Virus record (IMG/VR): IMGVR_UViG_2541047912_000004
Span: 1-44,088 of that record
DNA: 44,088 nucleotides
Origin: a virus
Taxonomy: Duplodnaviria; Heunggongvirae; Uroviricota; Caudoviricetes
Direction: 5' to 3' (one strand)
Shown here: piece after piece, positions 2,344 to 44,088 of the stretch
Layout: each line of letters opens with the position of its first letter
How positions within the stretch are numbered: the stretch's first letter is position 1
Position numbers and translations under genes: made by a program
Notes under the pieces: generated by a model
Databases searched by the model: none
Told to the model about the DNA's origin: nothing
The model's input: only the letters and a program-made list of their open reading frames with translations

Positions 2344-3342
2344 ATGTCTGATATTCGACAAAATAGAATAGAGTTAAATGAAGTGCATATAGCTCGCTCC
2401 ATGGCTATATTTCTAGTTGTTTTACTTCATTCTTCAGGTGCTTTTTTTATGCAGTTTGGAGATCATTGGTGGATTGTTAATTTATACAGTTCTTTTTCAA
2501 GGCAGTGTATAGGTCTTTTTTTTCTTATCACTGGATACCTTTTTTATGAAAAAAACATAAACCCAACAGCACACCTAAAAAAAGGAGTGTCGAGATTGAT
2601 AATACCATTCATATTTTGGTGGGTGGTATATTATATCTACAATACAGAGATTAACAACAAATCATATAATTCTATATTTCAACCAAGTGAGGTACACCTT
2701 TGGTTTATGTATGCATATATTTGTATATATATGTTTTTACCAATAATTTGCAACTCATTAAAACACATACCAACATATTACATTTTAATTATTGTAAGCA
2801 TGCTTTTTTACTCAAATTCCATTGTTCCTGTAGTTGATAAAACGATAATGAAGGTAACATGGTTTGATGTAAAACTAGTGTCTGAAAATGGGATATATAT
2901 CCTTATTGGGGCAATAATAAGGAGATATAACGATAAAATAAAAAAATGCAATGCAGTGATACCATTGGTGATTATTGTTATGTCGTGCCTGTTAACATCA
3001 ATGGCGTCTAGTTGGTGGTCTGAAATAACAGGCAGGCCTGAGCAGTTTTTCTTTAAAAATACATCTCCACTTGTATTAATATGTGTTATTTCTTCATTTA
3101 CATTATGCATGTCATACTCAAAAATAATTAGCAAAAGATTAATGAATTTATTTACATCAATATCAAATGTTTCATTTGGTATATACTTCGTCCATTTCTT
3201 TTTTGTTCGAGAAATTAGACTCGGGTATAATCAAGAAAACGCATATTTCATGATACCATTGCTAACAATCATTTATTTTTTAATGTCATATTGCATATCA
3301 ATAATTCTAAGCAAGATCCCTTTGCTTAGAAAAGTAATATAA
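2344..3342 (+). CDS. Integral-membrane acyltransferase family 3 protein (O-antigen acetylase-like, candidate lysogenic conversion gene)
   Basis: 332-aa highly hydrophobic multi-pass protein. The N-terminal region carries an R..A..LVVLLH motif typical of acyltransferase-3 enzymes. Strongly AT-rich. Convergent with the tailspike, with adjacent stop codons. Placement after the tailspike and next to att parallels oac in phage Sf6. Confidence 0.75.
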   Translation: MSDIRQNRIELNEVHIARSMAIFLVVLLHSSGAFFMQFGDHWWIVNLYSSFSRQCIGLFFLITGYLFYEKNINPTAHLKKGVSRLIIPFIFWWVVYYIYNTEINNKSYNSIFQPSEVHLWFMYAYICIYMFLPIICNSLKHIPTYYILIIVSMLFYSNSIVPVVDKTIMKVTWFDVKLVSENGIYILIGAIIRRYNDKIKKCNAVIPLVIIVMSCLLTSMASSWWSEITGRPEQFFFKNTSPLVLICVISSFTLCMSYSKIISKRLMNLFTSISNVSFGIYFVHFFFVREIRLGYNQENAYFMIPLLTIIYFLMSYCISIILSKIPLLRKVI

Positions 3343-5589
3343 TTATGGATTATTAACCTTCCATCTTTTATCATAGTAATGCAAATATCCCTGAGACGTT
3401 AGTGTCATATGGACAATCGCTTGGGATATTTGCGCGTTCTGAAAATTAACTCTAATAAATACTTGAGTGCCAATTGTTATTTTTGATACAGATATCCCGT
3501 CAAGAGTCTTGTCTCCTTGTATTTTATTAACCCAAACACCTGACGAAGACAAGGTTGCCTGATCCTTTCCGCTTATACTAAATATAATTTTACCTCCTGT
3601 TGCCAGTGAGGTGTTTACTCCATTTTGAGATATTGGAATTATTGTAATTTCACCAGCAATGAAAACACCATTTTTGTATTTAGATTCCTCACCTTGTTCA
3701 CAAATTAAAATATCAATACATCTACCCCATGGTACTAGGATTGTTGCATTTTCAGTTTTTACTTGTGGATATACAGCTGAAACACCTGCAGATTCGAAAT
3801 TTTTTGCTGATAAAACAACTCCGTCAGATCCATTTCTAAATCCCATTCCTGTATGATCACCGTATGTCCTTCCATGAGAGATGAATCCTCTTACATACTC
3901 TTCGGATACTACGCTACCAGTGGTTTCCTTCTGAAAGATAAATGTTTCACCAAAAGAAAAACCACGACATTGGTATTGGCTCTGATAATTTTCTGAGTTC
4001 TTAAAAAAGGAAATGCCTTTATATGCTGTTACATAGCCAGATCTAAATTGAACGGAAACAGGGGTTGTTTGTTCATCTGGAGGTAACTCCACAAAATGTG
4101 TAACATTTTGGCTGTTTGATTCCTGTAACCATACAGAAACACCATCTATAATCATGGTTGAAAATCTACTGTTTATTTCTAACTCAGAAAAATCAAGAAC
4201 ATGATCACCTGTAACACCCTCAACTCCAAACCCATCAATACTTAAAGACCTGAACTGATAGAATTTATGCGGTAACTCACAACCATCAGCTGCAATATTC
4301 ATTGCGCTAGTGTACATTAATGGGTAAGGACTTATAATTGGTTCATATGTTTCTCTATCTATTGCAGCCCCCCAAAGATACCCAACATTACAATGTCTTG
4401 CCCAGTTGGAAGAGAATGTAGTAGATGTGCCAGCCAAACCGAAACCATAGATACAATCATATGCTTGGTTGTTTGTAACATTACTGACAAAGCATGATAA
4501 GGGAAGTGCAAATTTATAATGTAGAAATATGTTATTTTTAATATCATATTCACTACCCCCGCCAAAGGTTTGTGTTTGACCAGAAATGACCAATGGGCTA
4601 CCTGAATATTCATCGTCAGCGTTGCGAAAACACATATTCTTTACTTTAAGATTGTGCCCCCAACTTCCCATAACAAAACCACCACTTCCTGATGTATAAA
4701 CAATACTTTTTTGTGGATTAATCCCATATAGATTTAGACTAATCCCTTCCCATCTAAACTGGCTAATGTCAATTTGAGTGTTACCAATATATATAGGCTG
4801 GTCTATGAAAACAGGAAGTTTAGTTAGATAAGCTTTATTAAGTGCTAATCCATCATTTGTTACACCTGTTAAATCAACGCCACCCATGCTTGGCGCTCTA
4901 GGATACCCTGTGGCCTGAATAGTACTCCAGTCAATATATGGAGCATCCATCCACGCTCCAAACATACGTGGTGTTACGTACCCCTTACCTTGAAGATCAC
5001 GTTTCCAGCGTTTACCACCCGCAGTGACAATGACCATGCCGTTATCATCTGCAGAAGTAGAATCTGTGAAATCGGCCACAAACAGACCACCACCAGTATC
5101 ACCTGATACTGTCGGCTTCATGCCTGTAGTGTGGAAGTCGACGAAAATCTTTTGCTGATCTCGCTCAGGCTCAATTGTCCTTAACATTGCTATATCAGGG
5201 CATGTCCCGATGTATTTAAGACCGTCTTCCCCTGATAGAGATACTTTAAGCTGATCAGGATCATACTTCAGCACATTTGGGAATTTGAACTGCTGTGCAC
5301 CATATGCATCATAAACAGCCATAGAATGGCCTTGCACAGTTACGAACTTGGCAATCTGTCCGTTATATACCGGATATCCAGCATCGTTAATGATGATTGG
5401 TTGCGAAACAGGAACGTGAGAACCGTCTTCATTCTCCACATAAACCTGAATCTGGTTTTCAGGATTTACCGGGTCAGTGTCAATTTTACCGATATAAATT
5501 TTGCCATTGGCTACGGCTTTAAAAGAACGAGCCATAGTGAAGAGTTGCGAAGGCATGCTTACCACAACATTTGCGGTGATATCTGACAT
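3343..5589 (-). CDS. Tailspike protein (P22 gp9-like N-terminal head-binding domain, divergent C-terminal receptor-binding domain)
   Basis: The N-terminus [43 protein letters not shown] closely matches the P22 tailspike head-binding domain. Start set at the internal ATG 5587..5589 (GGAG upstream); the ORF track extends 16 codons further. Confidence 0.85.
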
Positions 5590-5677
5590 TTCATTGCTCC
5601 AGACGAATGATATGATGCAACCATGATGTGATTGCATACCGAAATGGTACTATTGAGTATTTATCCAGTAGGTTACG

Positions 5678-5971
5678 ATGCCATTCCACCCAACTGGTGA
5701 GGCATCAAGGATGTACAGCAAATACGACGAGGCGCAGTTTCACTTGAGACTTCCGCATGAACTCCACGCGAAAATTAAGCAGCGTGCGAAGATGAATAAC
5801 AGGTCGCTGAACTCAGAGATAATTGCAGCGATTGAAGAATCATTGGCTAAACAAAGCTCTGCATCAGTTTACATTGACGATGCAGAGCGTATGGCAGAAC
5901 AACAATCTGATATAGTTAAGAAAATTGTCTTTGATACGCTCAAAGAGCTATATAAAAAAGACAGCAGCTAA
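5678..5971 (+). CDS. mnt: Mnt-like ribbon-helix-helix repressor
   Basis: Similar to P22 Mnt (..NNRSLNSEI.., AERMAEQQSDIVKKIVFDTLKELYKK versus P22 AERLADEQSELVKKMVFDTLKDLYKK). An alternative start at ATG 5711 gives 86 aa, closer to P22 Mnt length. Confidence 0.7.
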   Translation: MPFHPTGEASRMYSKYDEAQFHLRLPHELHAKIKQRAKMNNRSLNSEIIAAIEESLAKQSSASVYIDDAERMAEQQSDIVKKIVFDTLKELYKKDSS

Positions 5972-31450: not shown

Positions 31451-32101
31451 ATGAAAACTCAATTGATGGGAGAGCGCATTCGCGCTCGGAGAAAAGAACT
31501 CAAGATCAGGCAGGCCGCACTTGGAAAGATGGTCGGCGTGTCTAATGTTGCCATATCTCAGTGGGAACGCTCTGAGACAGAGCCAAATGGAGAGAATCTT
31601 CTCGCCCTGGCTAATGCGTTGAAGTGTTCCCCTGACTATCTGATGAAAGGAGAGGAAAGTCTTTCAAACATTGCCTATCACAGTAGGCATGATCCAAGAG
31701 GGTCATACCCTCTGATTAGCTGGGTGAGCGCAGGATGCTGGATGGAAGCTGTAGAACCATATCATAAGCGTGCAATAGATAACTGGTACGATACAACCGT
31801 AGACTGTTCAGAAGATTCGTTTTGGTTGGACGTGAAGGGAGACTCAATGACGGCTCCGGCCGGTCTCAGTATCCCTGAAGGAATGATAATACTCGTCGAT
31901 CCTGAAGTAGAGCCGCGTAACGGGAAACTGGTAGTTGCAAAGCTCGAAGGAGAAAACGAGGCAACTTTCAAGAAGTTAGTTATTGATGCAGGCAGGAAGT
32001 TTCTAAAACCACTTAACCCACAATATCCGATGATCGAGATCAACGGAAACTGCAAAATCATCGGCGTAGTTGTCGATGCAAAACTAGCAAACCTTCCATA
32101 A
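31451..32101 (+). CDS. c2: Prophage repressor C2 (P22-type, LexA-like autocleavage domain)
   Basis: 216 aa; the N-terminal HTH (QAALGKMVGVSNVAISQWERSETEPN) and C-terminal S24 peptidase-like domain (GDSM..KLVVAKL) are very similar to P22 C2. Confidence 0.9.
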   Translation: MKTQLMGERIRARRKELKIRQAALGKMVGVSNVAISQWERSETEPNGENLLALANALKCSPDYLMKGEESLSNIAYHSRHDPRGSYPLISWVSAGCWMEAVEPYHKRAIDNWYDTTVDCSEDSFWLDVKGDSMTAPAGLSIPEGMIILVDPEVEPRNGKLVVAKLEGENEATFKKLVIDAGRKFLKPLNPQYPMIEINGNCKIIGVVVDAKLANLP

Positions 32102-32710: not shown

Positions 32711-33010
32711 ATGACAGTAGTCATTACATATCTGGCTGACGATAACGCCAGAAATCGCCGCAGAGCACGCAGACAGGCTCAACGTGAACAGGCAATGCAA
32801 GAGCAGCGACTGGCGCGAAAAATTGCGCTAAAGCTCTCTGGTTGCGTCAGAGCAGATAAAGCAGCATCACTCGGAAGCCTTTGCTGCAAGAAGGCAGATG
32901 AAGTCGAGCGTAAACAGAACCGTATTTACTACCGCAAGCCACGCAGTGAAATGGGTGTGACTTGTGTTGGTCGCCAGAAAATGAAATTAGGCAGCAAACC
33001 ACTTATTTGA
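32711..33010 (+). CDS. N-like transcription antiterminator (arginine-rich motif)
   Basis: 99-aa basic protein with an N-terminal arginine-rich motif (DNARNRRRARRQAQREQA). First gene downstream of PL and nutL. Confidence 0.65.
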   Translation: MTVVITYLADDNARNRRRARRQAQREQAMQEQRLARKIALKLSGCVRADKAASLGSLCCKKADEVERKQNRIYYRKPRSEMGVTCVGRQKMKLGSKPLI

Positions 33011-34008: not shown

Positions 34009-34101
34009 GCGCGGCTTTACCGCATACCAATAATGCTTCACGAGAGGTGTTTATTCATGAGCGTAAACGCTGATTAATGAACGCAGTTGATAGGATATAA
34101 A

Positions 34102-34614
34102 ATGGCATTTATAAAGATTCTTGAATTAATTTCCCTAAGTGAGATTAATAATGTTGTCAAATATAACCCTATTTCTGGTGAGTTCACATGGCTAAAATCT
34201 TATGGAGCAAGGAAGATAGGTGGAACTGCCGGAACAATAACAACAAGCGGCTACTTAAGGATTTTCATTAACGGAAGACACTATGCTGCACATAGACTTG
34301 CATGGATTATCACTTTCGGTGTTGAGCCTGAAGGTATTATCGACCATATAAATGGCATAAAGACAGATAACAGAATTTGCAATCTGAGGCTTGCAACTTA
34401 CTCACAGAATTCAATGAATAGTAAAATAAACACCCTCAACAAATCAGGTTGCAAAGGAGTCACATGGAAGAAGGAAAGTAGAAAGTGGGCTGCCTATGGG
34501 AAATTAAACGGGAAGAAAAAACATCTAGGGTACTTTAATGAATTAGAAGATGCCAAAAAAGCTTACTGCGACTTTGCCAGAAAGCATCACGGCGAATTCT
34601 ACAGGAGCAAATAA
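34102..34614 (+). CDS. HNH endonuclease with a C-terminal AP2-type DNA-binding domain (homing-endonuclease-like)
   Basis: HNH motif region (AHRLAWIITFGVEPEGIIDHINGIKTDNRICNLRLATYSQNSMN) and an AP2-like segment (GVTWKKESRKWAAYGKLNGKKKHLGYFNELEDAKKAYCDFARKHHG). Start set at the ATG 34102 (AGGA Shine-Dalgarno); the track ORF begins at a TTG at 34087. Confidence 0.75.
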   Translation: MAFIKILELISLSEINNVVKYNPISGEFTWLKSYGARKIGGTAGTITTSGYLRIFINGRHYAAHRLAWIITFGVEPEGIIDHINGIKTDNRICNLRLATYSQNSMNSKINTLNKSGCKGVTWKKESRKWAAYGKLNGKKKHLGYFNELEDAKKAYCDFARKHHGEFYRSK

Positions 34615-37159: not shown

Positions 37160-37929
37160 GCAAGATTGATTATCAGGCACTGCGTGCTAAGGCAGAAAAA
37201 GCAACGTGTGGTGTATGGTCGCTCGAATATGGAGAGAGCCGATTTGATGGTGATGATGCGCTAATTCATCGTGAAGTTGCTGGATATATTCCCATTTGCA
37301 GAATTGAAGGAGCGCATCCAGAAAGCGGTTTCGATGAAGATTTCCAAATGGAACAGCAGGCCAATGCTGAATTCATCGCAGCAGCCAGTCCAACTACCGT
37401 ACTGGCACTGCTGGATGAACGGGAAAGAAACCAGCAATACATAAAACGCCGCGACCAGGAGAACGAGGAGATTGCGCTAACGGTAGGGAAGCTGCGTGTT
37501 GAGCTGGAAGCAACAGAGAACAACCTTATTGATAGTGAATGCCATGTTGCTGAACTGGAAGAAGCGCTACGCGATAAGCAGGTGTTACTTGAAGCCTCAG
37601 AAAAGCGCAACGCAAAATTACAAAGCGAGAATGCATACATCCGCAACCGGTTCAAAGAACTGGACCTGTTAATCGGGAAAAACATTCTGGTCATGCAGGC
37701 TGCCATTATCGAATGGCAGGCAACTGGCGACGCTAAGAGCGGACTGGCATGGATTTATAACACACTGTTTGGCCCAGGCGAATTGCCGGACGAATCTGAG
37801 CAAGATGCTCAGGCCTACTTTAATCGCAAATATGCACCGATTGACGAAAAGCTTATGGCGCTTCACAAGTGGTTTTGGGAACAAAGTGAAGCCGAGCGCG
37901 CCGCTGGCATCAAGGAGGAGTCTGAGTGA
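37156..37929 (+). CDS. Ead/Ea22-like family protein (coiled-coil)
   Basis: The N-terminus ([21 protein letters not shown]) resembles Ea22-like proteins; central coiled-coil. Start set at the GTG 37156 preceded by AAGGAGG; the track begins at an upstream ATG with no Shine-Dalgarno. Confidence 0.55.
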
Positions 37930-38420
37930 TGGTCATTTCACCTATAACGCTGAAAGCGGCGCAGGAATTTATCGCACAGCACCACCGACACAATAAACCA
38001 CCAGTGGGGCATAAATTCAGCATTGGTCTGAGAAATAATGCCGGAGAATTGATAGGTGTGGCGACAGCTGGTCGACCTGTTGCACGACATTTCGACGATG
38101 GATTAACGCTTGAAGTAAATCGCACATGTACCACAGGAGAACGCAACGCTAACAGCGCGCTTTATGGTGCTATCTGGCGGGCAGCAAAAGCTATGGGTTA
38201 TCAACGTTGTATTACGTACACCCAGGCAGATGAATCAGGAGCATCTCTTCGCGCAGCTGGTTTTGTTCGTGTGAAAGAGCTTCCTCCAAGAAAAAGCTGG
38301 GCGGAATCAAGCGTCGCCCTGCGGAGTAAACGCGATCCGGTCGGAAACGGTGGTATTCCTCGTGTGCTCTGGGAAATCAGGAGAATGAGTACCACTGGCA
38401 TTCGCATCAAAGGAGAGTGA
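37929..38420 (+). CDS. Hypothetical protein (163 aa)
   Basis: Start overlaps the Ea22-like stop (TGATG). No confident family assignment. Confidence 0.5.
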   Translation: MVISPITLKAAQEFIAQHHRHNKPPVGHKFSIGLRNNAGELIGVATAGRPVARHFDDGLTLEVNRTCTTGERNANSALYGAIWRAAKAMGYQRCITYTQADESGASLRAAGFVRVKELPPRKSWAESSVALRSKRDPVGNGGIPRVLWEIRRMSTTGIRIKGE

Positions 38421-39812: not shown

Positions 39813-39889
39813 TGGCTAACCTGCAACTTGCCGTCAAAGGTGAATAACAATCCTCGCACTCGCGGGGATTTCTTTTATATGGGGATAAT

Positions 39890-40690
39890 ATGACCATCCA
39901 CTTTCACGGCAGCCCAATATGGGGGGATGAGCATGCCCCTACAGATATGCTGATTAAAGCCCTTTACCGTGATGGTGGGGCTTTTGTTTCATTTGCCAGA
40001 CCAGAGCAGATGAAAAAGATTGCCATGTTCCCTTGTGATATACGCCTTGATAACGGCGCTTTTAGCGACTGGATGAAAGCATTAAAGAAAGGCACTCCGG
40101 TAGACTGGAGTAAGAGACGAGCAAAATTCTACGACTTTGTTGGGAAGTGGTTCAGCAGAATTGAATGGTTTCTTATACCTGACGTTATCGAAGGGACAGA
40201 GGCAGAAAACGACGAGCAGATTGAGTTGGTTCCTGATTGGCTAAAATCAAAAGCGGTTCCGGTCTGGCATACCGACGAATCAATTGAACGTCTTTTACGC
40301 CTTTCTAGCAAATTTGAATGGGTGGCGATTGGATGCTGCGGCCCACACAGGCACATACGCTCTAAATGGTGGGAACAGAGAATGGATGAAGTTTTCACTG
40401 AGCTTTATATCAATCGTAATTTGAAAGTGAAAATTCATGGTCTTCGAATGCTCGACGTGAGAGTTCTTGGTATGTATCCGTTCGCCAGTGCGGATTCTAC
40501 TAATGTTGCTGTTAACGTACCGAAGACAGAGAAGCGATTTCCTGAGATTACCGACAAACTGGCACGTACAGCTGTACTTCGCGCAGCTATTGAAAAGGTG
40601 CACCCACCATCGATATCAGCATGGGTAGACAGAAAGATGAGAGAGCCGGCGCAAGCCGGTTTTTTATTTGAATTCACCGACGCCGCTTAA
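39890..40690 (+). CDS. Hypothetical protein (266 aa); weak TGT-fold-like motifs, function unknown
   Basis: Last sizeable gene of the early-left operon before xis. Contains RLDNGAF and WVAIGCCGP segments that loosely resemble tRNA-guanine transglycosylase motifs (see findings). Followed by a terminator. Confidence 0.55.
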   Translation: MTIHFHGSPIWGDEHAPTDMLIKALYRDGGAFVSFARPEQMKKIAMFPCDIRLDNGAFSDWMKALKKGTPVDWSKRRAKFYDFVGKWFSRIEWFLIPDVIEGTEAENDEQIELVPDWLKSKAVPVWHTDESIERLLRLSSKFEWVAIGCCGPHRHIRSKWWEQRMDEVFTELYINRNLKVKIHGLRMLDVRVLGMYPFASADSTNVAVNVPKTEKRFPEITDKLARTAVLRAAIEKVHPPSISAWVDRKMREPAQAGFLFEFTDAA

Positions 40691-40710
40691 TGCGGATTTC
40701 TTTTATCTGA

Positions 40711-40734
40711 ACTCGCTACGGCGAGTTTTGTTTT
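40711..40734 (+). terminator. Rho-independent terminator
   Basis: ACTCGC-TACG-GCGAGT hairpin followed by TTTGTTTT. Confidence 0.55.
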
Positions 40735-40747
40735 ATGGAGATGATAA

Positions 40748-40915
40748 ATGCACTTCCGAGTCACAGGTGAATGGAATGGAGAGCCATTCAACAGAGTTAT
40801 CGAAGCAGAGAACATCAACGACTGCTATGACCACTGGATGCTGTGGGCGCAGATAGCACATGCAGACGTAACCAATATTCGAATTGAAGAACTGAAAGAA
40901 CACCAAGCCGCCTGA
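40748..40915 (+). CDS. Small hypothetical protein (55 aa)
   Basis: Hand-translated: MHFRVTGEWNGEPFNRVIEAENINDCYDHWMLWAQIAHADVTNIRIEELKEHQAA. GGAG Shine-Dalgarno; followed by a CCGCC-TGAT-GGCGG-TTTTTT terminator (about 40907..40927). Confidence 0.4.
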   Translation: MHFRVTGEWNGEPFNRVIEAENINDCYDHWMLWAQIAHADVTNIRIEELKEHQAA

Positions 40916-40941
40916 TGGCGGTTTTTTATTGGAGACAAGAA

Positions 40942-41379: not shown

Positions 41380-41403
41380 GCGTGTAATTGCGGAGACTTT
41401 GCG

Positions 41404-41622
41404 ATGTACTTGACACTTCAGGAGTGGAACGCTCGCCAGCGACGCCCAAGAAGCCTTGAAACAGTTCGTCGATGGGTACGCGAGTGCAGGATATTCCCTC
41501 CTCCGGTTAAGGATGGAAGAGAGTATCTGTTCCACGAATCAGCGGTAAAGGTTGACTTAAATCGACCAGTAACAGGTAGCCTTTTGAAGAGGATCAGAAA
41601 TGGGAAGAAGGCGAAGTCATGA
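41404..41622 (+). CDS. xis: Excisionase Xis (lambda-type)
   Basis: The 72-aa product MYLTLQEWNARQRRPRSLETVRRWVRECRIFPPPVKDGREYLFHESAVKVDLNRP.. is essentially lambda Xis. Start at the internal ATG 41404; the track ORF is over-extended. Confidence 0.9.
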   Translation: MYLTLQEWNARQRRPRSLETVRRWVRECRIFPPPVKDGREYLFHESAVKVDLNRPVTGSLLKRIRNGKKAKS

Positions 41623-42670
41623 GCGCCGGGATTTACCCCCTAACCTTTATATAAGAAACAATGGATATTACTGCTACAGGGACCCAAGGACGGGTAAAGA
41701 GTTTGGATTAGGCCGAGACAGGAGGATAGCAATCACTGAAGCTATACAGGCCAACATGGAGTTATTTTCAGGACACAAGCACAAGCCTCTGACAGCGAGA
41801 ATCAACAGTGATAATTCTGTTACGTTACATTCATGGCTTGATCGCTACGAAAAAATCCTGGCCAGCAGAGGAATCAAGCAGAAGACACTCATAAATTACA
41901 TGAGCAAAATTAAAGCAATAAGGAGGGGTCTGCCTGATGCTCCACTTGAAGACATCACCACAAAAGAAATTGCGGCAATGCTCAATGGATACATAGACGA
42001 GGGCAAGGCGGCGTCAGCCAAGTTAATCAGATCAACACTGAGCGATGCATTCCGAGAGGCAATAGCTGAAGGCCATATAACAACAAACCCTGTCGCTGCC
42101 ACTCGCGCAGCAAAATCAGAGGTAAGGAGATCAAGACTTACGGCTGACGAATACCTGAAAATTTATCAAGCAGCAGAATCATCACCATGTTGGCTCAGAC
42201 TTGCAATGGAACTGGCTGTTGTTACCGGGCAGCGAGTTGGTGATTTATGCGAAATGAAGTGGTCTGATATCGTAGATGGATATCTTTATGTCGAGCAAAG
42301 CAAAACAGGCGTAAAAATTGCCATCCCAACAGCATTGCATGTTGATGCTCTCGGGATATCAATGAAGGAAACACTTGATAAATGCAAAGAGATTCTTGGT
42401 GGAAAAACCATAATTGCATCTACTCGTCGCGAACCGCTTTCATCCGGTACAGTATCAAGGTATTTTATGCGCGCACGAAAAGCATCAGGTCTTTCCTTCG
42501 AAGGGGATCCGCCTACCTTTCACGAGTTGCGCAGTTTGTCTGCAAGACTCTATGAGAAGCAGATAAGCGATAAGTTTGCTCAACATCTTCTCGGGCATAA
42601 GTCGGACACCATGGCATCACAGTATCGTGATGACAGAGGCAGGGAGTGGGACAAAATTGAAATCAAATAA
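41600..42670 (+). CDS. int: Integrase Int (lambda-type tyrosine recombinase)
   Basis: The 356-aa sequence (MGRRRSHERRDLPPNLYIRNNGYYCYRDPRTGKEFGLGRDRRIAITEAIQAN.., catalytic region HELRSLSARLY..GHKSDTMASQYRDD) is essentially lambda Int. Overlaps the end of xis as in lambda. Confidence 0.95.
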   Translation: MGRRRSHERRDLPPNLYIRNNGYYCYRDPRTGKEFGLGRDRRIAITEAIQANMELFSGHKHKPLTARINSDNSVTLHSWLDRYEKILASRGIKQKTLINYMSKIKAIRRGLPDAPLEDITTKEIAAMLNGYIDEGKAASAKLIRSTLSDAFREAIAEGHITTNPVAATRAAKSEVRRSRLTADEYLKIYQAAESSPCWLRLAMELAVVTGQRVGDLCEMKWSDIVDGYLYVEQSKTGVKIAIPTALHVDALGISMKETLDKCKEILGGKTIIASTRREPLSSGTVSRYFMRARKASGLSFEGDPPTFHELRSLSARLYEKQISDKFAQHLLGHKSDTMASQYRDDRGREWDKIEIK

Positions 42671-42804: not shown

Positions 42805-44088
42805 GTGAACACATTTTCAGTTTCCCGTCTGGCGCTGGCATTGGCTTTTGGCGTGACGCTGACCGCCTGTAGCTCAACACCGCCCGATCAACGTCCTTCT
42901 GATCAAACCGCGCCTGGTACCTCTTCTCGCCCGATTCTGTCGGCAAAAGAAGCGCAGAATTTCGATGCTCAACACTATTTTGCATCCCTGACACCAGGTG
43001 CGGCAGCATGGAATCCTTCCCCGATTACCCTGCCTGCGCAACCTGACTTTGTTGTCGGCCCGGCGGGTACTCAAGGTGTAACGCATACCACGATTCAGGC
43101 GGCGGTAGATGCGGCAATTATCAAGCGTACCAACAAGCGCCAGTATATTGCCGTGATGCCTGGTGAGTATCAGGGAACGGTGTATGTCCCTGCCGCTCCG
43201 GGTGGAATTACTCTGTACGGTACAGGTGAAAAACCGATTGATGTGAAGATTGGGCTTTCCCTTGATGGTGGCATGAGCCCTGCCGACTGGCGTCACGACG
43301 TCAACCCGCGCGGCAAATATATGCCAGGTAAACCGGCGTGGTATATGTACGATAGCTGCCAGAGTAAACGCAGCGACAGTATCGGTGTTCTCTGCTCTGC
43401 GGTCTTCTGGTCACAAAACAATGGCCTGCAACTGCAAAACCTGACCATCGAAAACACGCTGGGCGATAGCGTAGATGCGGGTAACCATCCGGCGGTGGCA
43501 CTGCGTACTGATGGCGACAAAGTGCAGATCAATAACGTCAACATTCTCGGTCGTCAGAACACCTTCTTTGTCACCAACAGCGGTGTGCAGAACCGTCTGG
43601 AAACGAATCGTCAGCCGCGTACGCTGGTGACCAACAGCTATATTGAAGGGGATGTGGATATCGTTTCTGGTCGCGGCGCAGTGGTGTTCGATAACACCGA
43701 ATTCCGCGTGGTGAACTCCCGTACCCAGCAAGAAGCGTATGTGTTTGCACCGGCTACGCTGTCCAACATTTACTACGGTTTCCTCGCCGTAAACAGCCGT
43801 TTCAATGCTTCCGGTGATGGCGTGGCGCAACTGGGCCGCTCGCTGGATGTTGATGCCAATACCAACGGTCAGGTAGTGATCCGTGATAGCGCCATCAACG
43901 AAGGTTTTAACACAGCCAAACCGTGGGCTGATGCGGTGATCTCTAATCGTCCGTTTGCGGGTAACACCGGCAGCGTTGATGATAACGACGAAGTACAGCG
44001 CAATCTGAATGACACTAACTACAACCGCATGTGGGAATACAATAACCGCGGCGTGGGTAGCAAAGTGGTTGCAGAGGCGAAGAAGTAG
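42805..44088 (+). CDS. ybhC: YbhC-like outer-membrane lipoprotein (pectinesterase-fold acyl-CoA thioesterase family), host gene
   Basis: 427 aa with a lipoprotein signal peptide and lipobox (LALAFGVTLTACSS) and a long beta-helix-like repeat-rich body. Position next to the att site matches ybhC. Confidence 0.85.
   Translation: MNTFSVSRLALALAFGVTLTACSSTPPDQRPSDQTAPGTSSRPILSAKEAQNFDAQHYFASLTPGAAAWNPSPITLPAQPDFVVGPAGTQGVTHTTIQAAVDAAIIKRTNKRQYIAVMPGEYQGTVYVPAAPGGITLYGTGEKPIDVKIGLSLDGGMSPADWRHDVNPRGKYMPGKPAWYMYDSCQSKRSDSIGVLCSAVFWSQNNGLQLQNLTIENTLGDSVDAGNHPAVALRTDGDKVQINNVNILGRQNTFFVTNSGVQNRLETNRQPRTLVTNSYIEGDVDIVSGRGAVVFDNTEFRVVNSRTQQEAYVFAPATLSNIYYGFLAVNSRFNASGDGVAQLGRSLDVDANTNGQVVIRDSAINEGFNTAKPWADAVISNRPFAGNTGSVDDNDEVQRNLNDTNYNRMWEYNNRGVGSKVVAEAKK

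Follow-up and report, generated by a model that had tools for sequence, protein, structure and literature searches.

A putative DNA-guanine transglycosylase of the singleton DpdA subgroup in the early-left operon of a P22-like prophage

What is the function of the 266-amino-acid (266-aa) protein encoded close to the right end of the prophage in IMG/VR record IMGVR_UViG_2541047912_000004? The record was analysed over its full 44,088 nucleotides (nt), hereafter the window. An initial annotation of the DNA had drawn attention to three short motifs in this protein that loosely recall tRNA-guanine transglycosylase (TGT) and its DNA-acting relative DpdA, had cautioned that the likeness could be coincidental, and had proposed that a 7-deazaguanine base derived from host 7-cyano-7-deazaguanine (preQ0) might be inserted into phage DNA as a defence against restriction. 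The gene is an open reading frame (ORF) running from ATG to stop, with a GGGG Shine-Dalgarno-like run 5' of the start codon. Comparison of its product with known families supports its placement in the phage DpdA family, as a minimal representative within the gamma-proteobacterial singleton subgroup, with a putative DNA-exchange activity.

39890-40690, plus strand: dpdA-like coding sequence, 266 aa, minimal TGT-fold (beta/alpha)8 barrel of the singleton phage DpdA family

The protein has a catalogued counterpart. It is 98.5% identical to gp29 of phage HK106 (YP_007151699), which carries the RefSeq label "queuine tRNA-ribosyltransferase" and was listed by Hutinet et al. 2019 (PMC6884629) as the DpdA of a phage that has DpdA only. 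Supplementary Data 1 of that study names HK106 YP_007151699 together with SfI, PEAT2, 7-11, SE131, SEN1, SPN3UB and BTP1, and all of these except SfI were recovered among our tblastn matches. Thus, the window protein is, as judged from its sequence, a near-identical copy of a protein previously catalogued as a phage DpdA. The gamma-proteobacterial singleton DpdAs form a similarity cluster of their own, whose functional divergence, according to the same authors, needs more work (PMC6884629).

The family assignment is carried by profile and structure comparisons. PHROG 887 ("queuine tRNA-ribosyltransferase") matches residues 1-265 of the window protein with an E-value of 1.3e-102; the same PHROG contains the DpdA of phage CAjan (E 8e-96) and that of Salmonella phage 7-11. 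An alignment of 42 family sequences (A1) was compared by hhalign with CAjan DpdA alone (95% probability, E 3e-8) and with a profile of 22 DpdA1 sequences built on CAjan DpdA1 (A2; 96.4% probability, E 1.4e-9, 149 columns). In the latter comparison the catalytic motifs are in register, LDNGAFS, VPVWH, AIG, IHGL and SADST of the window family being paired with LDSGAFS, LPCFH, LGG, VHGF and SCDSS of DpdA1. An AlphaFold2 model based on A1 (mean predicted local distance difference test score 92.4, predicted template modelling score 0.88) shows eight beta-strands with helices in between and two more helices at the C-terminus, i.e. a barrel of the TGT type. A search of BFVD returned 27 significant matches, and all of those that bear a name are queuine tRNA-ribosyltransferases. 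The TGT-fold match by profile or structure search that the initial annotation had called for was therefore obtained, and its TGT/DpdA-like identification stood. The family is large, with about 1800 representatives at 50% identity.

Conservation was counted over 124 family representatives taken from 50%-identity clusters (at most 50% identical in pairwise comparison). The three motifs noticed initially, RLDNGAF (residues 52-58), LIPDVIEG (95-102) and WVAIGCCGP (144-152), are all present and coincide with true active-site elements: D54 is conserved in 98%, D98 in 100% and G148 in 97% of the representatives. Three comparably conserved elements had been overlooked, namely H127 in VPVWH (100%), H183 in IHGLR (94%) and the nucleophile motif SADST with D202 (92%) and S203 (89%). 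F/Y58 (98%) and R186 (92%) are also conserved. In the AlphaFold2 model the conserved residues lie at or just past the C-terminal ends of strands 3 to 8, on the face that carries out catalysis in TIM barrels. The elements are as follows (bDpdA, bacterial DpdA).

40043-40063, plus strand: RLDNGAF, aligned with CAjan LDSGAFS; D54 is the predicted general acid/base (bDpdA D95, CAjan D63)
40043-40063, plus strand: F58 in the same motif, predicted base-stacking or gate residue (bDpdA F99)
40172-40195, plus strand: LIPDVIEG, with D98 just after beta-4 as the predicted base-recognising aspartate (bDpdA D130, TGT D156)
40256-40270, plus strand: VPVWH, with H127 as a predicted Watson-Crick-edge contact (bDpdA H181), aligned with the invariant H132 of CAjan LPCFH
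40319-40345, plus strand: WVAIGCCGP, predicted 7-substituent pocket (bDpdA G206-G207, TGT G229-G230), G148 being aligned with DpdA1 ITIGG/LGG
40436-40456, plus strand: HGLRMLD (H183, R186), on beta-7, aligned with DpdA1 KVHGFG
40487-40501, plus strand: SADST, with D202 at the end of beta-8 as the predicted covalent nucleophile (bDpdA D256, TGT D280), aligned with D206 of CAjan SCDSS

In the hhalign output D54, H127, G148 and D202 align with invariant residues of CAjan DpdA, and D98 falls two residues away from the invariant D105. The successive motifs are spaced by 44, 29, 21, 35 and 19 residues in the window protein and by 42, 27, 21, 34 and 19 residues in CAjan DpdA, and it is from this spacing, not from the printed alignment, that we infer D98 to be the counterpart of D105. 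In bDpdA, D95 is the general acid/base, F99 the gate and D256 the nucleophile, D130 and H181 recognise the base, and G206-G207 form the pocket; the substitutions D95A and D256A, at the positions equivalent to D54 and D202, abolish guanine exchange (PMC10164549). Taking the CAjan alignment, the motif spacing and this published residue list together, D54, F58, D98, H127, G148 and D202 would fill the corresponding roles. H183 aligns with CAjan H187, which is presumably the histidine at "position 196" of 9g DpdA, a conserved residue that DpdA2 lacks (Hutinet et al. 2019).

Could the likeness nevertheless be accidental, the protein being some unrelated TIM-barrel enzyme? This reading finds some comfort in sequence searches that came back empty. 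No Pfam family matched the window protein at E-values up to 10, hence not the TGT family PF01702; neither NCBIfam nor the PADLOC DpdA model matched it; the PDB, searched by sequence with either the single protein or the family profile, yielded chance matches only; hhalign of the family profile against the single E. coli Tgt sequence was not significant; and Foldseek against the PDB placed generic barrels and TGT-family proteins side by side. The validated CAjan DpdA is, however, equally invisible, having no Pfam match, no PDB sequence match and a marginal PADLOC match only, so the silence of Pfam, NCBIfam and PADLOC is uninformative. Coincidence is refuted computationally, PHROG 887, the hhalign comparisons with CAjan DpdA and DpdA1, the motif conservation and BFVD all pointing to DpdA/TGT, and we leave it next to no probability; the caution expressed initially was not upheld, given the profile and fold matches and the conservation of the motifs.

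How does the window protein compare with enzymes of known function? The singleton phage DpdAs (HK106 gp29, 7-11 gp032, Pantoea phage MED16 gp38, and those of SEN1, SPN3UB, BTP1 and PEAT2) belong to the same family, match it in length and motifs, and are likewise found without que genes (Hutinet et al. 2019, Supplementary Data 1, PMC6884629; Simoliunas et al. 2021, PMC8306585). The HK106 gene even occupies the same position, beside xis and int, although HK106 is an HK97-like phage and the window holds the prophage of a P22-like podovirus. The DpdA1 proteins of the Queuovirinae (CAjan gp35, 9g), which are validated preQ0 DNA transglycosylases, have the D, H, G, H and D motifs in common with the window protein. 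CAjan DpdA is about 19% identical to it over the aligned core and is 40 residues longer at the C-terminus; its gene lies within a folE-queD-queE-queC-yhhQ cluster, whereas the window gene does not. The absence of a zinc subdomain, remarked upon initially, is real: about 64 residues, forming two helices, follow D202, the CxCxxC...H zinc site of TGT is not found in the window protein, and there is no conserved cysteine cluster, as none of its three cysteines (C49, C149, C150) is invariant across the family. CAjan DpdA has no cysteine-based zinc site either, so this loss is no argument against activity.

By contrast, the bDpdA of the Salmonella Montevideo Dpd system (PDB 7UI4) has 413 aa and four insertions, including the 128-residue, zinc-containing Ins8, which the window protein lacks. 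That enzyme needs the ATPase DpdB, and DpdC makes 7-amido-7-deazaguanine (ADG); neither partner is present in the window, and no dpd cluster was found among the window ORFs scanned, a scan that was not exhaustive. Bacterial Tgt and archaeal ArcTGT (PF01702) possess an N-terminal beta-sheet lid, the zinc subdomain and C-terminal RNA-binding domains, all of them missing here, and act on tRNA, whereas the substrate of the window protein is presumably DNA. A further comparison is with Cap10 of the type IV cyclic oligonucleotide-based antiphage signalling system (CBASS; PDB 9NTN), which works with Cap9 on the N-terminus of the cGAS/DncV-like nucleotidyltransferase (CD-NTase) (bioRxiv 10.1101/2025.04.06.647259). 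An enzyme that, like Cap10, attached a 7-deazaguanine to protein (deazaguanylation) and not to nucleic acid is a highly improbable alternative. Cap9 is QueC-like, and tblastn found no Cap9/QueC-like gene in the window; the protein has no PADLOC match; no CD-NTase occurs among the scanned ORFs, although no systematic CD-NTase search was made; the sequence relatives are DpdA1 proteins; and the setting is that of a phage lytic operon and not of a defence island.

Where would a 7-deazaguanine come from? The statement that preQ0 synthesis genes are absent proved correct, as tblastn with CAjan FolE, QueD, QueE and QueC gave nothing better than E 0.5 in the window. Gene neighbourhoods were compared in 79 related IMG/VR loci, divided into three groups by identity, and preQ0 synthesis genes were found in none of the 79, which places the gene in group 3 (DpdA-only) of Hutinet et al. 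2019 and not in groups 1 or 2. What many relatives do have is a transporter. A Vut_1/YhhQ-type gene lies directly 5' of dpdA, ending a few nt before its start, in 20 of the 25 relatives with 57-88% identity, PEAT2 among the phages that carry it, although several of these loci are near-duplicates and the independent cases number fewer than 20. The gene occurs at one of the 25 relatives with at most 48% identity, and all 29 loci of at least 98% identity, which are E. coli prophages, are without it. The window allele belongs with these: tblastn with CAjan YhhQ and a relative's Vut_1 gave nothing better than E 0.5, remnants of vut looked for 5' of dpdA were not found, and homology to relatives that carry vut sets in no more than about 10 nt from the dpdA start codon. 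An example of the pair is given here.

Locus L038, 9540-9995 and 10001-10798: vut-dpdA pair (also in L034-L043, L047-L055, L058 and L069)

YhhQ is the preQ0/preQ1 transporter of E. coli (cited in PMC6884629). Hutinet et al. 2019 reported that YhhQ was not correlated with any phage group. A second association concerns DNA. In one lineage (P0006; L004 6001-7383, also L005, L006 and L042) a single protein of 460 aa combines a DpdA-like domain, 76% identical to that of the window, with a Dam DNA N6-adenine methylase domain (PF05869, E 4e-58); Vut_1 lies just 5' of the fusion gene, which belongs to a prophage early-left operon and is placed right before xis-int. The neighbouring transporter gene connects the family with free 7-deazapurine bases, and its connection with DNA comes from the Dam fusion. 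The proposed use of a host precursor is consistent with the lack of que genes in the window and with the transporter beside many relatives, the host being the presumed source of substrate. A more distant homologue (44% identity) in E. coli CP057104 (L007 6001-6810) lies within a lysis cassette, between holin and M15 endolysin, with a ParB_N-N6_N4 DNA methyltransferase gene about 800 bp downstream, a genomic setting very unlike that of the other family members described here.

The DNA chemistry of two relatives indicates what the product might be. Deletion of dpdA in CAjan abolishes 2'-deoxy-preQ0 (dPreQ0) in phage DNA (PMC6884629), and CAjan modifies about 30% of its G, whereas phages carrying singleton DpdAs modify 0.02-0.13%. 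In phage 7-11, whose DpdA is 58% identical to the window protein, 2'-deoxy-ADG (dADG) is present at 50 per 10^6 nt, about 0.02% of G (PMC6884629). In MED16, whose gp38 is 43% identical, dADG reaches 354 per 10^6 nt, about 0.13% of G, accompanied by traces of dPreQ0 (PMC8306585). By arithmetic, these densities amount to some 4 to 30 modified sites per 41-kb genome. When all ORFs of the complete phage genomes were compared by BLASTP (E <= 1e-4), DpdA was the sole protein common to 7-11, MED16 and the window, and no shared DpdC-like partner that could explain the amide of dADG was found. Phage DpdA or DpdA2 expressed alone in E. coli modifies plasmid DNA (PMC6884629, PMC10516641), so the precursor supplied by an E. 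coli host is sufficient. We favour, with fair confidence, the reading that the window protein would act after replication, during lytic growth, as a DNA guanine transglycosylase that uses host preQ0 or a near relative and leaves a sparse mark, probably dADG.

The silent database searches are one of several points that weigh against this reading. The modification in the relatives is sparse, the product is dADG rather than the expected dPreQ0, and the dADG of MED16 gave no noticeable protection from those restriction enzymes that were tried (PMC8306585), so an anti-restriction role is no more than a possibility. The large zinc-containing insertion proposed to serve bDpdA in DNA use is absent, as is, from this allele, the transporter gene that many relatives carry. 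Literature searches for functional work on a DpdA of lambdoid or temperate phages turned up the 2019 catalogue and the MED16 paper only.

Some of these same facts would suit a phage tRNA enzyme. On that account the protein would place preQ0, preQ1 or salvaged queuine in tRNA and so adjust translation in the lytic phase, and the traces of modified DNA in relatives would stem from a side reaction. It has the TGT fold, and the DNA of 7-11 and MED16 is modified at very low levels (PMC6884629, PMC8306585). The vut-dpdA pair also resembles bacterial queuine salvage, a pathway formed by YhhQ together with TGT. There is, however, no Pfam TGT match, the zinc subdomain and C-terminal RNA-binding parts of TGT are missing, and the nearest relatives in sequence and structure are DNA-acting DpdAs. 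One relative is fused to Dam, and E. coli already has its own Tgt. We thus judge a role in tRNA modification to be quite improbable.

A further question is whether the enzyme is still active in E. coli. If the barrel has decayed or been repurposed, it might bind or excise bases but insert no deazaguanine, as a plain glycosylase or precursor sink, or might be functionless in the lambdoid phages of E. coli. The transporter gene upstream has been lost in this allele, truncated copies exist (P0010, P0011, P0018, P0023, L059, L060), and mycobacteriophage Orion, which has a singleton DpdA of another subgroup, has no DNA modification (PMC6884629). Yet the catalytic residues are all intact and strongly conserved, and E. 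coli makes preQ0, whereas Mycobacterium smegmatis does not. Moreover, this gene is found in 81 of 5426 complete E. coli genomes (NCBI), in every case on the chromosome and under the annotation "hypothetical protein", and it is 95-100% identical across these 81 genomes and morphologically unrelated phages, which points to purifying selection. Loss of function as a general explanation therefore seems unlikely to us, though it deserves more credit than a tRNA substrate.

Individual alleles do appear to erode. Near-identical copies are truncated or split in L059 (6175-6971), L060 (4049-4845), P0010, P0011, P0018, P0023 and P0080; in these copies either the match in one frame is confined to the C-terminal half or the products have a length of 154-212 aa. 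This suggests that the dpdA-like gene occasionally decays in E. coli prophages.

When would the gene be expressed? The window contains a complete P22-like prophage at the lambda attachment site, with the following landmarks.

1240-1716: host ybhB-like gene, flanking the prophage
3343-5637: tailspike with P22 head-binding domain
5678-5971: Mnt/Arc gene
31451-32101, plus strand: cI-like repressor
32711-33010, plus strand: N-like antiterminator at the head of the early-left operon (phrog_271, E 5e-37)
41401-42670, plus strand: excisionase and lambda-type integrase (int 41600-42670), end of the operon and of the prophage (phrog_629; phrog_7244/phrog_1)
42805-44088: host ybhC-like gene, flanking the prophage

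On the plus strand between 31451 and 42670 the order is cI-like, N-like, HNH, RecT, Gam-like, accessory genes, the dpdA-like gene, two small ORFs, xis and int. The gene had rightly been placed at the end of the early-left operon, since it lies downstream of the N-like, RecT and Gam-like genes with two small ORFs before xis-int. No sigma-70-like promoter was found between 39300 and 41700, where 3.4 were expected, and because this stretch without a promoter-like site belongs to an N-type operon, we infer that expression of the dpdA-like gene most likely depends entirely on antiterminated readthrough from pL in lytic growth.

The gene and its immediate surroundings behave as a mosaic cassette.

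39813-40750, plus strand: mosaic cassette with dpdA, about 99% identical in DNA to unrelated lambdoid prophages (blastn block boundaries)
39849-39870 and 40709-40728: terminator-like hairpins at both ends of dpdA, inside the shared block

Terminator-like hairpins are enriched between 39300 and 41700 (11, compared with 2.0 +/- 1.6 in shuffled sequences), others being located at 40640-40665 and 40905-40924, and this enrichment looks like the signature of module boundaries in an antiterminated operon. An 11-codon ORF (MANLQLAVKGE, 39813-39848, plus strand) lies inside the cassette just 5' of the hairpin that precedes dpdA; at the equivalent place HK106 has an annotated 29-codon ORF (gp30).

Other genes of the prophage deserve brief mention. 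A 164-aa ORF of the early-left operon (37926-38417, plus strand) matches PHROG 1384, "Mom-like DNA modification protein", with an E-value of 7e-43, and Pfam Mom PF25680 weakly (24 bits, below the cutoff of 27.1). It may be a second DNA-modification gene, and it accompanies dpdA in only two of the 79 related loci (L012, L014). The HNH endonuclease gene of the same operon (34087-34614, plus strand; phrog_99, E 1e-68) is upstream of the RecT and Gam-like genes. At the other end of the prophage, an Acyl_transf_3 gene of low GC content (about 33%; 2344-3342, plus strand) adjoins the tailspike gene and is probably a lysogenic-conversion moron encoding an O-antigen acetyltransferase.

Under the favoured reading, DNA guanine exchange in lytic growth would proceed as follows. 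Once the prophage is induced or a cell infected, antitermination by the N-like protein would let the pL transcript extend into dpdA. The enzyme would then flip guanine out of double-stranded phage DNA at a small number of sites defined by sequence, and a 7-deazaguanine, either preQ0 or a close derivative from the host FolE-QueD-QueE-QueC pathway, would enter the active site; in many relatives this base may be imported through the adjacent YhhQ/Vut transporter. D98, H127 and the G148 loop are predicted to hold the incoming base and D54 to activate it, so that deazaguanine would take the place of guanine once the DNA has been replicated. To judge from 7-11 and MED16, virion DNA would most likely end up with sparse dADG, at between a few and a few tens of sites in each genome, a mark that might protect or identify the DNA in the face of some host defence.

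A bolder version of this scheme, which we put forward tentatively and consider doubtful as a whole, would make the singleton subgroup functionally distinct from DpdA1. Together with the abutting YhhQ/Vut importer, lost in this E. coli allele, the enzyme would form a self-contained two-gene cassette for import and insertion. Sparse, sequence-specific dADG would arise with no DpdC-type partner, the enzyme either putting in the amide base directly or hydrating the nitrile on its own. The mark carried by temperate lambdoid phages might then be an epigenetic self-label aimed at a particular defence, at packaging or at regulation, and not a bulk shield against restriction.

DpdA-only temperate phages are common, and the gene studied here can be relabelled as encoding a DpdA-family DNA-guanine transglycosylase, function putative. 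To the existing catalogue the present analysis adds a residue-level map of the predicted active site, a tight vut-dpdA cassette in one subclade, a DpdA-Dam fusion, and the finding of no shared partner for dADG. An inducible lambdoid prophage of E. coli combined with que mutants of the host is probably the easiest system in which the function of a singleton DpdA could be established.
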